A model generated the notes under the pieces. The model was not told the DNA's origin, searched no databases, and saw nothing but the letters and a program-made list of their open reading frames with translations. A DNA stretch of 43,891 nucleotides from Escherichia phage vB-Eco-KMB35. Within the stretch, counting starts at the first letter, position 1. Every line of letters begins with the position of its first letter. A program made the translations under genes and the position numbers. The stretch lies in the sequence record OR525704.1, one strand, 5' to 3'. Shown piece after piece: positions 4,554-41,647 of the stretch.

Positions 4554-4585
4554 TGAATAGTACCCTATTATATTGGGGTGTGCAA
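4554..4585 (-). promoter_or_regulatory. Promoter element family A (TTGCAC-N17-TACTAT), copy 1
   Basis: Minus-strand sense ttgcacaccccaatataatagggtactattca; 32 nt identical to 13678..13709; directly upstream of gene 4326..4529. Confidence 0.6.
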
Positions 4586-13677: not shown

Positions 13678-13709
13678 TGAATAGTACCCTATTATATTGG
13701 GGTGTGCAA
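13678..13709 (-). promoter_or_regulatory. Promoter element family A, copy 2 (identical to 4554..4585)
   Basis: 32-nt exact repeat; TTGCAC-N17-TACTAT in minus-strand sense, upstream of 13652 start. Confidence 0.6.
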
Positions 13710-26706: not shown

Positions 26707-26994
26707 TTAACTATAATAGCCCGCTATTAGGTCGTCAACCTGTTTAAACGAACCAACGACAAAAACATTTGCACCACGTTTACGCATCCGCTCGTGCTCT
26801 CGTAACTGGTGCGGGTCCGGCTTCGTGTTTTCGTCTTTCTTAACCTCGACGAACCAGATGATGCCACCAGGGAGAATTACCAGCAGGTCGGGGGCGCCGG
26901 AGCGCCCCTCATAAGACAGCTTACGAACGAGGCCACCAATGGCCTCGAATCGCTCTTTTGCGTATTTCTGCACGCGCCCCTCAGGCGTACTCAT
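26707..26994 (-). CDS. VRR-NUC domain nuclease
   Basis: 95 aa; PDLLVI...VEVKK PD-(D/E)XK-type motif. Confidence 0.7.
   Translation of the reverse strand: MSTPEGRVQKYAKERFEAIGGLVRKLSYEGRSGAPDLLVILPGGIIWFVEVKKDENTKPDPHQLREHERMRKRGANVFVVGSFKQVDDLIAGYYS
26709..26738 (-). promoter_or_regulatory. Promoter element family B (minus-strand TTGACG-N17-TATAGT) overlapping the 3' end of the VRR-NUC gene
   Basis: 30-nt element aactataatagc-NNN-ctatt-NNNN-cgtcaa shared with 30898 and 33447. Confidence 0.45.
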
Positions 26995-30897: not shown

Positions 30898-30927
30898 AAC
30901 TATAATAGCTAACTATTCAGGTGTCAA
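30898..30927 (-). promoter_or_regulatory. Promoter element family B (minus-strand TTGACA-N17-TATAGT)
   Basis: Near-consensus hexamers, 17-nt spacer, about 60 nt upstream of gene start 30839. Confidence 0.6.
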
Positions 30928-33446: not shown

Positions 33447-33476
33447 AACTATAATAGCGAACTATTCACATGTCAA
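33447..33476 (-). promoter_or_regulatory. Promoter element family B (minus-strand TTGACA-N17-TATAGT), early leftward promoter
   Basis: Consensus hexamers with 17-nt spacer; palindromic core TAATAG-N4-CTATTC. Confidence 0.6.
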
Positions 33477-33773: not shown

Positions 33774-36008
33774 CTATTCCAAATCCTCCTCTGTCACCAC
33801 CAGCATCTCATTTGGTTCGTATAGTGTCTTCGGCCTTAATCTATCCCCTATTCTTTCGGGTATACGATATGTTCTCGGTACTACTTCGCCGTTAGCATCG
33901 CAACCAAGCATTAGTTCTCCATCTTTCAACATTTTATCAAGATGGGTGTTAGTCACAGAGAAGTCACCGGAACGAGCCACTATCTGCTGCTGAGTAAAAC
34001 CGCGACCTGTGTCATCTGACTGTTGCAGGTCTTCCAGTGCCGAAAGTATTGACTCCTTCCTTACTTCATCCCTGCCGCGTTTAACTTCTTCCTTTACTTT
34101 TTGCTTACCTTCTTTCGTCAACCCTTCTTCCCGCTCTTTCTCCTCGTCAGTTTTGAACGGCTCGAAACCCCACGGCATCAACACAAGCGCCTTGTGTGGT
34201 TCAGGCAGGTCCAGGTTTACGATTGTGCCGTATTCCTCTGTGCTACCCAGGAACTCAACCGCTCGGTATTCTTTAGGCGGCGGCGCTTCACGGAACTGTA
34301 CCGACTCCAGCACCATGCCAACCGTCTTCTGCTGAGGCCCGTGCTTGAATTTCGAGTGATATACGTTTATCTGACGGTCGGTTGCACGTTCGATTGTCAG
34401 TTCCACGTCAACACCCGCATACAGCGCCCCACTGCCGCGTGCTTTCTTTCCACCCTTCGGCGTATGGTGGACAACGCCTACTGCGGCTTTAGTTGCATCG
34501 CGTACTTCTTTCAGAATGGCGATAACTTTACCCATGCCGATTGCTGTTGATGAACTGTTCTCGTCGAACTTATCAATCGTCAGGGCCAGCGTCTGGTTAA
34601 GGGTGTCGAAGGCAACCATGCCAATAGGTTCATCCCCTGCGGTTTCGCGCATTAACTTAATCAGGCTTTTAAGTTTGCCGACTTCGCCCATATCGATGAC
34701 GTGTACATAATCTTTACCTTCCCCGCCATATTTAGCCGCTAGTGCATCAATACGGGTGCGTGTAGCTGCGCCACCCTCACCATCAATATAGAAATGGTGG
34801 CAACGCTGGGTATCCGCCCCCGCAAACCGGTACCCGGCGGCGCTCAGGTACATCATCCCCAGCGTATAGAATGATTTGTACGTGCCAGATTCCCCGACGA
34901 TATCCCATATACAATCTGATGGCATGTACCCTTCAACGACGAAATCAGCCTTTACCGGCTCCGGTAACTCGTCCCCCTCTGAGTCCTCCTCTGAGTCCTC
35001 GTCGTCTTCCAGGTCGTCGAGGCTGCAAGTTACTGGGTCCTCGTTCTCTGTGCGGTGTAGTTCTTCAATCTCTTCATCCGGTAAATCAGGCAGAGCCGCA
35101 CGAATGCTGTTAATACTGATAGGTTGCTTGTCTACGTTAAGCTCGTCTGGCAGGCCGCACATACGCAGGGCCAAATGCTGTCGGCGGTTAAGCTCGGTGC
35201 AAGCGCCGTTGTTTGTATGCTGGCACACAAAGCGCACTTCTTTACCATCAAGCATGATGCTTGTGGAGCCTTTGCCTGTATGCAGATGTTCGTTAGGACA
35301 TGGGACTTCGTACCCGCGCCCGGAAGATAAAGCGTCAAGGCCAAGCTCGGCTTCGCAGAAATGCGCTATATCAGCGTTAAGCCCATACTCATCGGCGGCA
35401 AGTGTCTTAACTTCACGTTTACTCAACCCCATCTCTTCGGCTTTCTTGATGTACCGCTCGGCACGGATAACACGCCCTTCTGTAACCGTTATCTTTGACT
35501 CTCTATGTGGCAGATAGATAAGGCGGTTGCCGTCTTCCGTGCAGTGGTCACGCAAGGCTTCATCTATTTCTAACTCTGCACAAATAGCCCGTTGGACCAT
35601 CCACGCATCGTTAGAGTTAAACGGCGTGCGAGCCGGTACGAGAACGCGGAAGGCGTAATCACCGTTTTTACACACATGCTGATGCGATGCCGTTGTATGC
35701 AGAATATTGAAGAACGGTGCGTTCTTGAATTTGCGGGTAAGGTCGCGGTACTGAGTACGGTTGAGATGGTCAAAATCGAACTTAACCACACTGTCTTCCA
35801 GAATAGCGTTCTTACGGCGACCGCCAACAGGCGCAATAGCTTTCTGTTTAATCTTGGCCGCGTCGTACTCTTCCTTAGTCCATGACGGGTCCACGGATAA
35901 ACGCTTCGATGTATCGCAGACATACTCCACAAACTGCTCGAGCGGCATCTCACGCGCTACAGGGTTTTTATCGAATGTGTTACGCAGCGTTGCAAAAACA
36001 ATATTCAT
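33774..36008 (-). CDS. Bifunctional DNA primase-helicase
   Basis: 744 aa; central zinc-binding CPNEHLH...C...C; C-terminal RecA/DnaB-like Walker A GESGTYKS. Confidence 0.7.
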   Translation of the reverse strand: MNIVFATLRNTFDKNPVAREMPLEQFVEYVCDTSKRLSVDPSWTKEEYDAAKIKQKAIAPVGGRRKNAILEDSVVKFDFDHLNRTQYRDLTRKFKNAPFFNILHTTASHQHVCKNGDYAFRVLVPARTPFNSNDAWMVQRAICAELEIDEALRDHCTEDGNRLIYLPHRESKITVTEGRVIRAERYIKKAEEMGLSKREVKTLAADEYGLNADIAHFCEAELGLDALSSGRGYEVPCPNEHLHTGKGSTSIMLDGKEVRFVCQHTNNGACTELNRRQHLALRMCGLPDELNVDKQPISINSIRAALPDLPDEEIEELHRTENEDPVTCSLDDLEDDEDSEEDSEGDELPEPVKADFVVEGYMPSDCIWDIVGESGTYKSFYTLGMMYLSAAGYRFAGADTQRCHHFYIDGEGGAATRTRIDALAAKYGGEGKDYVHVIDMGEVGKLKSLIKLMRETAGDEPIGMVAFDTLNQTLALTIDKFDENSSSTAIGMGKVIAILKEVRDATKAAVGVVHHTPKGGKKARGSGALYAGVDVELTIERATDRQINVYHSKFKHGPQQKTVGMVLESVQFREAPPPKEYRAVEFLGSTEEYGTIVNLDLPEPHKALVLMPWGFEPFKTDEEKEREEGLTKEGKQKVKEEVKRGRDEVRKESILSALEDLQQSDDTGRGFTQQQIVARSGDFSVTNTHLDKMLKDGELMLGCDANGEVVPRTYRIPERIGDRLRPKTLYEPNEMLVVTEEDLE

Positions 36009-36133
36009 TTCTTTTTCTCCGCACGTTCTAAGGCTTCCTGCATACGGCGCATTGCGCGGTTCATCTTTACCGGTGCGAAGAAGTCAGCGCCGTGTTTCTG
36101 TCGGCGCAGCTGTGGAACTATTAACTTCGTCAT
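36005..36133 (-). CDS. Small basic protein (42 aa)
   Basis: ORF below track cutoff; AAGGA RBS; stop overlaps primase start (ATGA). Confidence 0.35.
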   Translation of the reverse strand: MTKLIVPQLRRQKHGADFFAPVKMNRAMRRMQEALERAEKKK

Positions 36134-36202
36134 TGTATAATCCTTGTGCTTACTTTGATGATTTGTGCTTTGGCCCCGACGTTCTTGCGTTGGGGTTTCT
36201 TT

Positions 36203-36493
36203 TTACCGTTTAGCCAACCCTTCCAGCAAATTTTTATACTCTTCAAAATATTCCTCGACCAAATCATCGCCGAAATAGAAGTCGATATACTCGAGATTAT
36301 CTCTTACGTTAAGCGATGCCGACATGGTGCTTAGTTGGCGTAAGCTAATTAGCTTCATTTCTGTTTCTACGCAGAAAGGCCGGTAGGTATCAAGATGGCA
36401 AGAGATATTGAAGCATAAAGCGAACTCTCCGGCCACGGAGTGAACCATATACACTTCGTTTTCTGCTTTATTGTGGAAAATTACGCCTTTCAT
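36203..36493 (-). CDS. Hypothetical protein (96 aa)
   Basis: ORF in replication operon, overlaps upstream gene stop. Confidence 0.45.
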   Translation of the reverse strand: MKGVIFHNKAENEVYMVHSVAGEFALCFNISCHLDTYRPFCVETEMKLISLRQLSTMSASLNVRDNLEYIDFYFGDDLVEEYFEEYKNLLEGLAKR

Positions 36494-36672
36494 TTCACGT
36501 TCTCCTTAATCCATGCTTCGACTTTATTACGGTCAAATGTTCCCGGTAAACGGCGGCCCATAACCTTAATACAGCAGTCAGGGAATTTGCCGCTGCGCAA
36601 CCAGTTATTAATGGTCTGACGTGTCACCCCGATACGCTCGGCTACCTCATTCTGTGTCATGTAATGTTGCAT
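36490..36672 (-). CDS. AlpA/excisionase-like HTH DNA-binding protein
   Basis: 60 aa from ATG 36672 (RBS AGGGGA); MTQNEVAERIGVTRQTINNWLRSGKFP matches AlpA-type HTH pattern. Confidence 0.6.
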   Translation of the reverse strand: MQHYMTQNEVAERIGVTRQTINNWLRSGKFPDCCIKVMGRRLPGTFDRNKVEAWIKENVK

Positions 36673-36703
36673 TTTTATATCCCCTGTTTGTTTAGTGAAA
36701 CCG

Positions 36704-36732
36704 AGTATAGGATAGCGGGAATGTAAAAGCAA
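36704..36732 (-). promoter_or_regulatory. Minus-strand promoter TTGCTT-N17-TATACT for the leftward early operon
   Basis: Hexamers (read on minus strand) with 17-nt spacer about 30 nt upstream of AlpA-like gene. Confidence 0.45.
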
Positions 36733-36769
36733 CCAATCCCTGCAATATTTAATCTTTACAAAAAAGTTA

Positions 36770-36799
36770 TTGAAAGTTCTTGACACATGTTTGTATAAT
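36770..36799 (+). promoter_or_regulatory. Plus-strand promoter TTGAAA-N18-TATAAT
   Basis: Consensus -10, good -35, TG adjacent to -10; divergent from the minus promoter. Confidence 0.5.
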
Positions 36800-36805
36800 G
36801 GTTTT

Positions 36806-37026
36806 GGGACTTGTATATATTACGGAGTTGACGAACCCTCCCCGAGGGATTCGTCAACCCCTCCCAGACAGCTGAGATGCTTGCCTTGTGGTTTAAGGAT
36901 AAGTGTATCTAAATCTCATTTAAAGAAGTAACCCGCTGAAATATCTACTGTTTCTTAATGTGCCGTAGATTCGCAACCGTAAAAATGTAACGATTATTGG
37001 GCAGGCTTAGGGCCTGCCCTTTAGTT
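36806..37026 (+). ncRNA. Candidate small non-coding RNA (promoter to terminator, no ORF)
   Basis: About 220 nt between promoter 36770..36799 and terminator 36999..37026; 13-bp imperfect hairpin 36828..36857; longest ORFs 10-11 codons. Confidence 0.35.
36999..37026 (+). terminator. Intrinsic terminator gggcaggc-ttagg-gcctgccc then tttagtt
   Basis: Perfect 8-bp GC stem with T-rich tail. Confidence 0.6.
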
Positions 37027-37091
37027 ACCAAGTAATAAGAATAAAGGCACAACAGTTTCGAAAGAATCACAACGGCAACGTAACTATTCTC

Positions 37092-37123
37092 TTGCACACC
37101 CCAACATAATAGGATACTATTCA
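37092..37123 (+). promoter_or_regulatory. Promoter element family A (TTGCAC-N17-TACTAT), copy 3, rightward early promoter
   Basis: 30/32 identity to copies at 4554 and 13678 in opposite orientation; 30 nt upstream of ORF 37155. Confidence 0.6.
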
Positions 37124-37154
37124 CTTATCGAAACGAGACAGAGGAGTGAGGGTT

Positions 37155-37346
37155 ATGTTTAAGAAGGGTCAGTTGGTTATAACTAAACGCGGAGGGCAAT
37201 ATGTATTAGTGTTGCAGGACGAGAGCGAGTATGACGAGGATAATCTGGTTGACGTATGGGGTCTGGTAAGAAAGAAAACTGGGTTCGCCTCACGCGATAA
37301 TTTAGAACTCATCGGCAACAATTTTAAATTCAAAGGGGCGAAGTGA
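37155..37346 (+). CDS. Hypothetical small protein (63 aa)
   Basis: ATG with GAGGAG RBS. Confidence 0.5.
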   Translation: MFKKGQLVITKRGGQYVLVLQDESEYDEDNLVDVWGLVRKKTGFASRDNLELIGNNFKFKGAK

Positions 37347-37582
37347 TGCAAATCATAATTACGGATAACACAGTTGCCTACGAAAAAGGTGGCGACAATA
37401 CTCTGGAAAGAATAGGCGTAAATATAGGTGACGTTTTTGATGTGCTTGGTACTGTATCAGGCGGTTGGTGGATTAAGGTTGGACGCAACAAAGTGCCAGT
37501 AACTAAGGCCGAAGCGGAAATATACACAACGGCATCGAATCATGATGCTCGTGCCAACGACTCTGAGGGAGGTTGCCGTTAA
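37346..37582 (+). CDS. Hypothetical small protein (78 aa), paralog of next gene
   Basis: Start overlaps upstream stop; shares I-ITD...GV-GD-F-V pattern with 37582..37773. Confidence 0.5.
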   Translation: MQIIITDNTVAYEKGGDNTLERIGVNIGDVFDVLGTVSGGWWIKVGRNKVPVTKAEAEIYTTASNHDARANDSEGGCR

Positions 37583-41343: not shown

Positions 41344-41647
41344 ATGAGTAACGTACAGACAATCGCAATAACCGAGGAACTTGAAGCCAAATGTATCGCA
41401 TGGACTATGGGTAATGACCAGGTTGCTATGCGTAAATTTCCAATGAAAATCACAGACATCGAAGCGTAATGACCAGGTTGCTATGCGTAAATTTCCAATG
41501 AAAATCACAGACATCGAAGCATTCAAAGATGCACAACTGATGGCACGTATTGCCGTTGGCAACCTGAGCAACAATATCCCGGCGGACGCGTTCTGGTTCG
41601 CTGCTATGCAGACACTGAAAGCAGCTTATGCAGGAGAGAAGAAATGA
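41344..41647 (+). pseudogene. Small gene split by a 55-bp tandem duplication (N-fragment 41344..41469, C-fragment restart 41483..41647)
   Basis: Removing one 55-bp copy restores a single 82-codon ORF; with both copies the frame shifts and stops at TAA 41467. Confidence 0.55.
41411..41520 (+). repeat. Perfect tandem direct repeat, 2 x 55 bp
   Basis: 41411..41465 identical to 41466..41520; flanking bases differ. Confidence 0.95.

Follow-up and report, generated by a model that had tools for sequence, protein, structure and literature searches.

A candidate immediate-early non-coding RNA locus, constant in architecture and variable in sequence, in Kagunavirus and Jerseyvirus phages

In virulent Pseudomonas phages, RNAs running from a promoter to a premature terminator within a 5′ region have been confirmed experimentally (PMC10914365). 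The small RNAs (sRNAs) found in the 5′ untranslated regions (5′UTRs) of phiKZ, PAK_P3, LUZ19 and YuA, detected by ONT-cappable-seq and Northern blotting, each have their own promoter and a terminator upstream of a gene; they are 100-200 nt long, non-coding and conserved within a genus, and no function has been assigned to them. The same set of features is predicted here for positions 36770-37026, + strand, of the virulent Escherichia phage vB-Eco-KMB35 (record OR525704.1), whose 43,891 nt, analysed as one stretch, are called the window below. In our opinion, there is about an even chance that this interval specifies an immediate-early, structured non-coding RNA of ~220 nt made by the host polymerase. 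The candidate RNA is most likely either a stand-alone molecule or a prematurely terminated leader, and the locus is conserved in position and variable in cassette throughout the genera Kagunavirus and Jerseyvirus, being present in neither Rfam nor the searchable literature.

The unit opens with a sigma-70 promoter, TTGAAA-N18-TATAAT, at 36770-36799 of the + strand (-35 at 36770-36775, -10 at 36794-36799), which is present as the initial annotation had described it and agrees with the consensus at 11 of 12 positions. No other match of at least 11/12 occurs on the + strand of the 43.9-kb window; both strands together hold three such matches versus 0.34 expected from shuffles, the other two being operator-bearing promoters of leftward operons. 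Transcription is predicted to start at ~36806-36809. Rightward transcription from upstream is suggested by the + strand terminator described below, which would otherwise be pointless and upstream of which 36770 is the only + strand promoter. As a class, promoter-like matches are not enriched in the surrounding 3 kb (5 vs 4.9 expected); significance rests on the quality of this particular promoter and on its conservation in relatives; terminator-like matches in the same 3 kb (6 vs 3.0 expected) were not counted as enriched.

Two further promoters frame the unit. The divergent promoter of the alpA-like/replication operon, TTGCTT-N17-TATACT (36704-36732, - strand), was read from the sequence and stands back-to-back with the RNA promoter, 37 bp apart. 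On the other side, outside the RNA, the unit is bounded by the family-A promoter of the rightward early operon, TTGCAC-N17-TACTAT (37092-37120, +). This promoter, already recognized at 37092 by the initial annotation, is real and has three near-identical copies in the window. Its -10 element is overlapped by an operator-like palindrome, AATAGgataCTATT (37108-37121). The same 14-bp palindrome, AATAG-N4-CTATT, lies in or adjoins the -10 element of six sigma-70-like promoters of the window: the family-A promoters (palindromes at 4556-4569, 13680-13693 and 37108-37121) and three promoters of the form TTGACR-N17-TATAGT on the - strand (26715-26728, 30904-30917 and 33453-33466). It resembles an operator for a phage regulator, and the promoters that carry it agree with a "phage promoter" consensus published for fBC-Eco01. 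Neither the RNA promoter nor the alpA promoter has the palindrome; we infer both to be host promoters of the immediate-early class without regulation, the others being under the control of a phage-encoded regulator.

The predicted 225-nt RNA (36806-37030) folds at -71.4 kcal/mol (z = -4.1). Near its 5′ end, the long imperfect hairpin that had been placed at 36828-36857 is confirmed, now at 36827-36858 (+): it comprises 14 bp, a CCC loop and one bulged A, with arms GUUGACGAA/UUCGUCAAC plus CCCUC/GAGGG (-23.8 kcal/mol, z = -5.3), and the C/U-rich segment CCCCUCCC lies directly 3′ of it. A second, smaller hairpin (36880-36903, +; CUUG-CCUU ... AAGG-A-UAAG) is proposed from folding together with the alignment of phages that share the window's own 5′ sequence (type W). 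The AU-rich central region that follows (36904-36986, +) is mostly unpaired in the folds and carries motifs weakly common to all alleles, namely (G/C)TCTATT-like and AAGTNAC..GAT-like sequences and TGCCGT at 36961. The unit closes with a terminator-like GC hairpin, GGGCAGGC(U)/(G)GCCUGCCC, at 36999-37019 (+; -18.3 kcal/mol, z = -3.6), in which a 9-bp stem (7 G-C pairs) and a 3-nt loop are followed by the tail UUUAGUUACC. The features of an intrinsic terminator (a GC stem of at least 5 bp, a short loop and an adjoining U-rich tract) are thus found at 36999-37026. Pairing extends to 36987-37028 via GUAAC/GUUAC and UA/UA flanking the GC stem, and the hairpin ends ~130 nt upstream of the ATG at 37155. 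Of the "clean" terminator first proposed here, the hairpin is in place; the U-tract (UUUAGUU, 37020-37026) is weak.

The locus is, as judged from its reading frames, non-coding. Within the predicted transcript there are indeed only open reading frames (ORFs) of ~10-11 codons, as the initial annotation had stated for the interval, and none of them is conserved; TTG-initiated ORFs of 53 aa (36770..) and 31 aa (36780..) do exist, both beginning inside the promoter. The short + strand ORFs MLALWFKDKCI (36877..) and MCRRFATVKM (36957..) have no Shine-Dalgarno (SD) sequence; both are altered or truncated in relatives (to 2 codons in L026) and absent from other cassettes. A leader-peptide attenuator, one of two possibilities originally offered, was rejected, the short ORFs being unconserved and without a ribosome-binding site (RBS); the other, a non-coding unit or candidate sRNA, is supported. 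In the GenBank records of Bas72, Bas74 and ORH_001, "hypothetical proteins" of 30-33 aa (36756-36857, -) and 59 aa (36945-37124, -) are annotated. The minus-strand ORF at 36945-37124, with a GTG start inside the family-A promoter, measures 0, 35, 38, 43, 59 ... 108 aa in relatives; it is probably spurious, since it is unconserved and starts inside a promoter. Protein-coding readings, including Bas72_0055/0056, were rejected because the ORFs are unconserved.

The corresponding regions of relatives were taken from annotated phage records, IMG/VR loci found via the helix-turn-helix (HTH) protein encoded by the alpA-like gene, IMG/VR loci found via a universal 21-mer, metagenome contigs and one GTDB scaffold, and 50 distinct intergenic sequences were collected. 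Across these relatives, sequence is replaceable and architecture is retained. The first 64 bp ("module A", 36673-36736, containing the alpA promoter) track the alpA allele, and the last ~95 bp (the module D hairpin, family-A promoter and RBS) are near-universal. Five unalignable 5′ cassettes occur, termed W (that of the window), J, Jerseyvirus, K/G and M2, along with three 3′ cassettes, M1 (that of the window, held in common with Jerseyvirus), M0 and M2; the 5′ and 3′ cassettes reassort, eight combinations having been seen. The total gap measures 446-483 bp in most sequences and ~620-690 bp in three. Each 5′ cassette has exactly one + strand promoter, of the form TTGAxx-N16-18-TAnnnT: TTGAAA-18-TATAAT; TTGACA-17-TAAGGT or TAAGTT; TTGACT-17-TAAGCT with a preceding TGn; or TTGACA-16-TAAAAT. 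A GC-rich hairpin with a T-containing tail is found in every 3′ cassette, the hairpin taking the form GGGCAGGC.., GGGGTGGGC.. inside a long AGAGUAC/GUACUCU-UUUU hairpin, or GGUGCCUUCGGCACC. With one exception, the alleles fold markedly better than shuffles (z from -2.6 to -5.8), though this holds for both strands. Poor conservation in relatives, named at the outset as grounds for dismissing the RNA, was not what we found: in every allele, a + strand promoter is accompanied by structured, non-coding sequence and by a GC hairpin. This objection therefore fails, the architecture being kept in every allele and covariation being strong in one of them.

That covariation was detected with a covariance model built on the 117-nt 5′ stem-loop of the J cassette. 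With this model, every J allele is found at 88-148 bits and every Jerseyvirus allele at 32-38 bits (E ~1e-5 to 1e-4). In the 34-bp J/Jerseyvirus stem-loop, 95.6% of cells pair and 18 of the 34 pairs, including all ten of the apical helix, show double-sided changes, as counted in a 25-sequence alignment that was fitted to the model and so favours structure. Even so, the effect is sizeable: the covariation score is 0.461, against 0.165 when shuffled (0/500) and at most 0.093 with slid partners. Among the curated helices, G.U pairs occupy 34 cells in 4 columns and A.C only 10 cells in 2 columns, an excess that leans towards a + strand RNA. The covariance check suggested for this locus has thus succeeded for the J/Jerseyvirus cassette and not for the window's own allele, in which W is invariant and M1 scarcely covaries. 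The W-type region is ~98% identical in phages with a flanking kilobase of 89-93% identity; the cassette itself is near-invariant in nine phages whose flanks diverge by 7-11%, and hairpin 1 is invariant bar one loop change. In hairpin 2, a 6-nt substitution hot spot at 36884-36889 (CCTTGT, CCTTGG, TTTTAG or CCCAAC) stands out in the otherwise near-invariant 480-bp intergenic region of these nine phages. Where TT replaces CC (36884-36885), AAGG can still be paired only via G.U in the + strand, and the CCCAAC variant breaks two pairs. The terminator stem of M1 shows C-G to U-A in four sequences and two wobble changes, including A-U to G.U, with variation in loop and internal-loop bases; other proposed M1 helices never vary. 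A closing helix for M1, GUGCC/GGCAC, was considered and is unsupported (two A.C disruptions versus one wobble).

The 3′ part of the window's unit belongs to the M1 block (36958-37054, +), which is 94-100% identical between Kagunavirus and Jerseyvirus, with a mean column identity of 96% over 19 distinct sequences, unlike the alpA genes of the same two genera, which are only ~78% identical. Conservation of M1 runs ~30 nt beyond the U-tract, through 37029-37054 (CAAGTAATAAGAATAAAGGCACAAC). A hypervariable 8-nt linker follows at 37055-37062 (+), reading AGTTTCGA in the window and CCTTCCCT, CCCTACCT or deleted in relatives. Next comes the module D hairpin (37063-37090, +; AGAAU-CACA-ACG-GCAA-CGU-AACU-AUUCU), which has a GNRA loop (z = -3.0), is near-universal in the subfamily and covaries in its outer stem (GAAU/AUUC to GAAC/GUUC and GGAC/GUUC in Jerseyviruses). 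The hexamer ACGGCA of module D (37072) is complementary to TGCCGT (36961), and each of the three 3′ cassettes retains both, at an unphased spacing of 95-113 nt. DNA looping or a dimeric operator was rejected as an explanation of this pair, the spacing being unphased and the hexamer common genome-wide. Because M1 conservation continues past the U-tract, the 3′ end of the RNA is uncertain, and this is the main uncertainty of the analysis. The weak U-tract, the conserved downstream elements and the TGCCGT/ACGGCA pair suggest that some transcripts read through; the elements downstream of the U-tract may be part of a longer RNA or may be DNA sites serving the family-A promoter.

Some sequence records break at this block. 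Those of Salmonella phages celemicas and sidste (MT074484.1, NC_073219.1) begin inside M1 (~36975-36980), and two further records, of phages skrot and wast, stop within or close to it. Packaging in Jerseyviruses is of the headful type and starts from a P1-like pac site; for a Kagunavirus, no termini have been found. Given headful packaging, these record ends are probably a convention of assembly or linearization and not physical ends, and a packaging-site reading of M1 was rejected on the same grounds.

Searches for known RNAs and for targets covered both the window and its relatives. The Rfam 15 search, which took in C4/CI, IsrK, 6S, int-alpA, riboswitches and ribozymes, gave no match at the gathering threshold in the whole window. 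Within 36400-37400 at E ≤ 10 it returned only sub-threshold chance matches (16-25 bits against cut-offs of 35-90), and there was no match in the five other alleles or the Jerseyvirus region; no tRNA or tmRNA was found either. A sub-threshold match to the eukaryotic SNORD67 at 37224-37352 (25 bits, cut-off 35, E = 0.006), mostly inside the ORF at 37155-37346, is regarded as chance. C/U-rich segments are present in every allele and are a generic feature. In the M2 3′ cassette (Golestan, L005 ~1500-1580; also L010, L011 and L082), the sequences on either side of the GGUGCCUUCGGCACC hairpin together make up an antisense copy, split in two, of the 5′UTR and SD sequence of the first rightward gene: CUCACUC-A-CUCU ... 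GUUUCGUUUCG faces CGAAACGAGAC-AGAG-GAGUGAG with 22 nt paired (p = 0.002-0.011). The left flank in M2 is a (CTCA)n microsatellite of 4 to 7 copies, depending on the phage. In M0, TCACTCCGCTG faces TCACTCCTCTG (p ~0.04-0.05 taken alone), and the W/M1 allele of the window has only GAUAAGUG (36898-36905) facing CACUUAUC (37122-37129), which is not significant (p ~0.07-0.1). A CRISPR-repeat mimic (Racr-like) and an integration host factor site were looked for by eye only and found no support.

The locus occupies a 482-bp gap between a leftward early/replication operon and a rightward operon of small genes. The leftward operon begins with the 60-aa "AlpA-like" HTH_17 gene (36490-36672, -; ATG at 36672) and continues with small ORFs and then a 744-aa AAA_25 helicase-primase, ~0.7 kb left of the locus. 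The HTH protein has HTH_17 as its best Pfam match (E = 1.6e-8) and also matches phrog_66, "excisionase and transcriptional regulator"; the Pfam search gave no PF05930 (Phage_AlpA), and no AlpA chain was among the PDB sequence matches. In the transcriptome of a related phage, the HTH gene is one of only four early genes. The rightward operon consists of small genes without assigned function, starting at ATG 37155 with an RBS, GGAG, at 37143. The 1-kb stretch around the locus is 99.4-99.7% identical to the corresponding DNA of Escherichia phages NicoleGrasset_Bas72 and LotteLoewe_Bas71 of the BASEL collection, and it matches 448 phage records, mostly of Salmonella and Escherichia phages. On the strength of this near-identity, of the phage-record matches and of zero matches in 5,426 complete E. 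coli genomes, the window is assigned to a virulent siphovirus of the genus Kagunavirus. A prophage or host origin was rejected on the latter count, the GTDB species representatives containing one match. This single match, a 19-kb Taishania pollutisoli scaffold (NZ_JACVEL010000022.1), holds the M1 block (L116 2020-2050); the organism's name does not suggest an enterobacterium, and the scaffold is probably a contaminating Jerseyvirus or Kagunavirus contig. In Jerseyviruses (Salmonella phage vB_SenS-Ent2, L003 1380-1900), the homologous gap is ~1 kb long and has no ORFs longer than 45 aa; it holds a second copy of "GC hairpin - TTACC - N12 - GAATAAAGGCAC" and a GC-rich, probably structured stretch at ~1500-1680 with no Rfam match. 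Elsewhere in the window, a 55-bp unit is perfectly duplicated in tandem (two copies, 100% identical) at 41411-41520.

Several observations weigh against the candidate RNA. Hfq-dependent sRNAs end in a terminator hairpin followed by a long uninterrupted U-tail. Here the tail is UUUAGUU, a tract so short that a classical Hfq-type 3′ end is unlikely, and the (ARN)5-like sequence AGUAAUAAGAAUAAA is located past the terminator, outside the predicted RNA. Target prediction against phage mRNAs, another of the checks initially suggested, came to nothing: no complement of at least 12 nt was found elsewhere in the phage genome, and 10-11-mers were at chance level. The J-based model finds none of the W, K, G and M2 cassettes. 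Homology of all cassettes by this route was not borne out, only the Jerseyvirus alleles being reached beyond J, so that calling them one RNA family rests on position, architecture and a few short motifs. The near-invariance of W leaves the window's own 5′ fold without covariation support, and in the M1 block just 1 of 28 pairs is compensatory. A strand test on 1x1 mismatches in folds restricted to Watson-Crick pairs gave 10 G.U and 11 A.C, i.e., no asymmetry. The sequence past the terminator and module D are conserved as well as the RNA body. Finally, the sole transcriptome paper on a Kagunavirus does not cover intergenic RNA.

Three other explanations of the locus were weighed. The main rival, a cis-acting leader or attenuator, is credible, if on balance unlikely: 36770 would be a second promoter of the rightward operon, 36806-37154 its structured 5′ leader and 36999-37026 a regulated or partial terminator. 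In a variant of this explanation, the neighbouring HTH protein would permit read-through, like P. aeruginosa AlpA or lambda Q, and the ~220-nt RNA would be a by-product, as is the 194-nt PR'-tR' transcript of lambda. Read-through is what a weak U-tract predicts, and 37027-37054 and the module D hairpin, both past the terminator, are highly conserved; the preservation of TGCCGT/ACGGCA at a variable distance is as expected for RNA pairing across the terminator, and the split antisense of M2 would sequester the RBS of the first gene in a read-through transcript. An intrinsic terminator does lie between promoter and first gene, as in antitermination units, and the succession of promoter, ~200-nt leader, terminator and operon beside a small winged-HTH gene is the alpA-PalpB-tB layout (PMC7969949). 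Against this, the first gene has an independent and well-conserved promoter of its own past the terminator (37092-37120) and does not depend on read-through to be expressed. The promoter spacers, where an AlpA-type binding element would be located, are unrelated in W and K/G despite 100% identical HTH proteins, and those of W, K/G, J, Jerseyvirus and M2 are all mutually unrelated, leaving no common regulator element. The HTH protein is of the HTH_17 and not the Phage_AlpA type, and solved AlpA chains do not match it in sequence; only for M2 does the anti-RBS complementarity reach significance, not for W/M1 (p = 0.07) or M0; and there is no conserved leader peptide.

The other two explanations place the function in the DNA. 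It is improbable, in our view, that the interval contains regulatory DNA alone, i.e., protein-binding or insulating elements between divergent operons, with hairpins acting as terminators or operators and an incidental transcript. Such a role agrees with conservation that runs past the predicted 3′ end, with the ambiguous strand test, with the lack of a target or Rfam family and with the recurrence of GAATAAAGGCAC elsewhere in some Jerseyviruses, beside another hairpin or directly upstream of a promoter; but DNA-binding sites account neither for the double-sided compensation in 18 stem pairs nor for the retention of a near-consensus promoter in every cassette, nor for wobble-preserving changes specific to the + strand. 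Still less probable is a transcription-activated replication origin like the T7 primary origin or T4 oriF/oriG, at which the transcript would open or prime the DNA for the family-A polymerase and helicase-primase. The locus does lie beside replication genes at a point of divergent transcription, 36904-36986 is AT-rich, GC in the surrounding 2-kb windows falls to ~0.45, and the region is conserved at the DNA level as much as at the RNA level. The cumulative GC skew also has its minimum here, at 36-37 kb (36000-37000), but this is where the two gene blocks diverge, and the change of gene orientation would explain the minimum equally well. The region has no iterons or repeated 6-7-mers, only weak two-copy repeats; five unalignable 5′ cassettes with compensatory stems fit RNA structure better than a DNA unwinding element; and no literature places an origin here, nor did we find any on an RNA or regulator site in this region.

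If the locus does encode an immediate-early RNA, host sigma-70 polymerase would start at ~36806 immediately after DNA entry, from the strongest + strand promoter of the genome, one without the palindromic operator of six other phage promoters. The transcript of ~215-220 nt would consist of the 5′ hairpin, the small second hairpin, an AU-rich single-stranded centre and the extended 3′ GC hairpin, and a substantial fraction of transcripts would end at UUUAGUU (37020-37026). The product would be RNA and not protein, its job probably regulatory or host-directed, and it may act in trans via its hairpins and its single-stranded C/U-rich and AU-rich segments. A bolder proposal, which we regard as doubtful, has the locus encode an immediate-early RNA of modular build, its 5′ and 3′ domains (at least 5 x 3 alleles) being swapped among phages that share hosts and the cassettes being determinants of specificity. 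Were this true, the cassette RNA could counter host defence or a competing phage, or could tune translation of the first early gene, an option pointed to by the split antisense copy of that gene's SD region in M2; virulent phages, whose "hypervariable early gene" arsenals consist of proteins, would then have an equivalent made of RNA.

The Guernseyvirinae, to which Kagunavirus and Jerseyvirus belong, rank with the therapy and biocontrol phages most often isolated for Salmonella and E. coli, and thanks to the BASEL collection, Kagunavirus can now be studied genetically in E. coli K-12. In existing annotations, the early control region of these phages is either left blank or given spurious small coding sequences, and we know of very few non-coding RNAs from virulent coliphages. 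A conserved, structured, strongly promoted RNA of the first minutes of infection would be a new regulatory player, and cassette allelism offers a ready-made allele-swap comparison between near-identical phages. Even if the product is merely a terminated leader, the promoter map (an operator-free divergent pair and six operator-bearing promoters) should be useful for genome engineering.

Among described systems, the lambda PR'-tR' unit (194-nt "6S" RNA, Q) and P. aeruginosa PalpB-tB (AlpA; PMC7969949, PMC9371919) share with this locus a strong constitutive promoter, a ~200-nt leader, a terminator, an operon and an adjacent regulator gene; unlike them, it has no conserved spacer element, its regulator is of the HTH_17 type and an independent promoter lies past the terminator. 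P4 CI, P1/P7 C4, lambda OOP and P22 Sar are, as predicted here, small structured phage RNAs in control regions beside regulator or replication genes, and C4/CI alleles differ between related phages and set specificity. In contrast to these antisense or immunity RNAs of temperate elements, the candidate belongs to a virulent phage and is ~3x longer, it has no Rfam match to them at E ≤ 10 and no overlapping antisense gene, and the window's allele shows no significant complementarity. ColE1 RNA II and the transcription-primed origins of T7 and T4 likewise combine a promoter-driven structured transcript near replication genes with 5′ stem-loops that vary with compensation, whereas here there is no counter-transcript promoter, no iterons and no sign of an RNA-DNA switch point, and the replication genes are on the other strand. 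The Pseudomonas-phage sRNAs differ in having been detected experimentally, in other hosts and with unrelated sequence, the RNA described here being only predicted; in the present case, moreover, a second promoter separates RNA from gene and the cassettes are interchangeable. By analogy of layout, the candidate RNA nevertheless appears to resemble in kind these validated premature-termination sRNAs of Pseudomonas phages.

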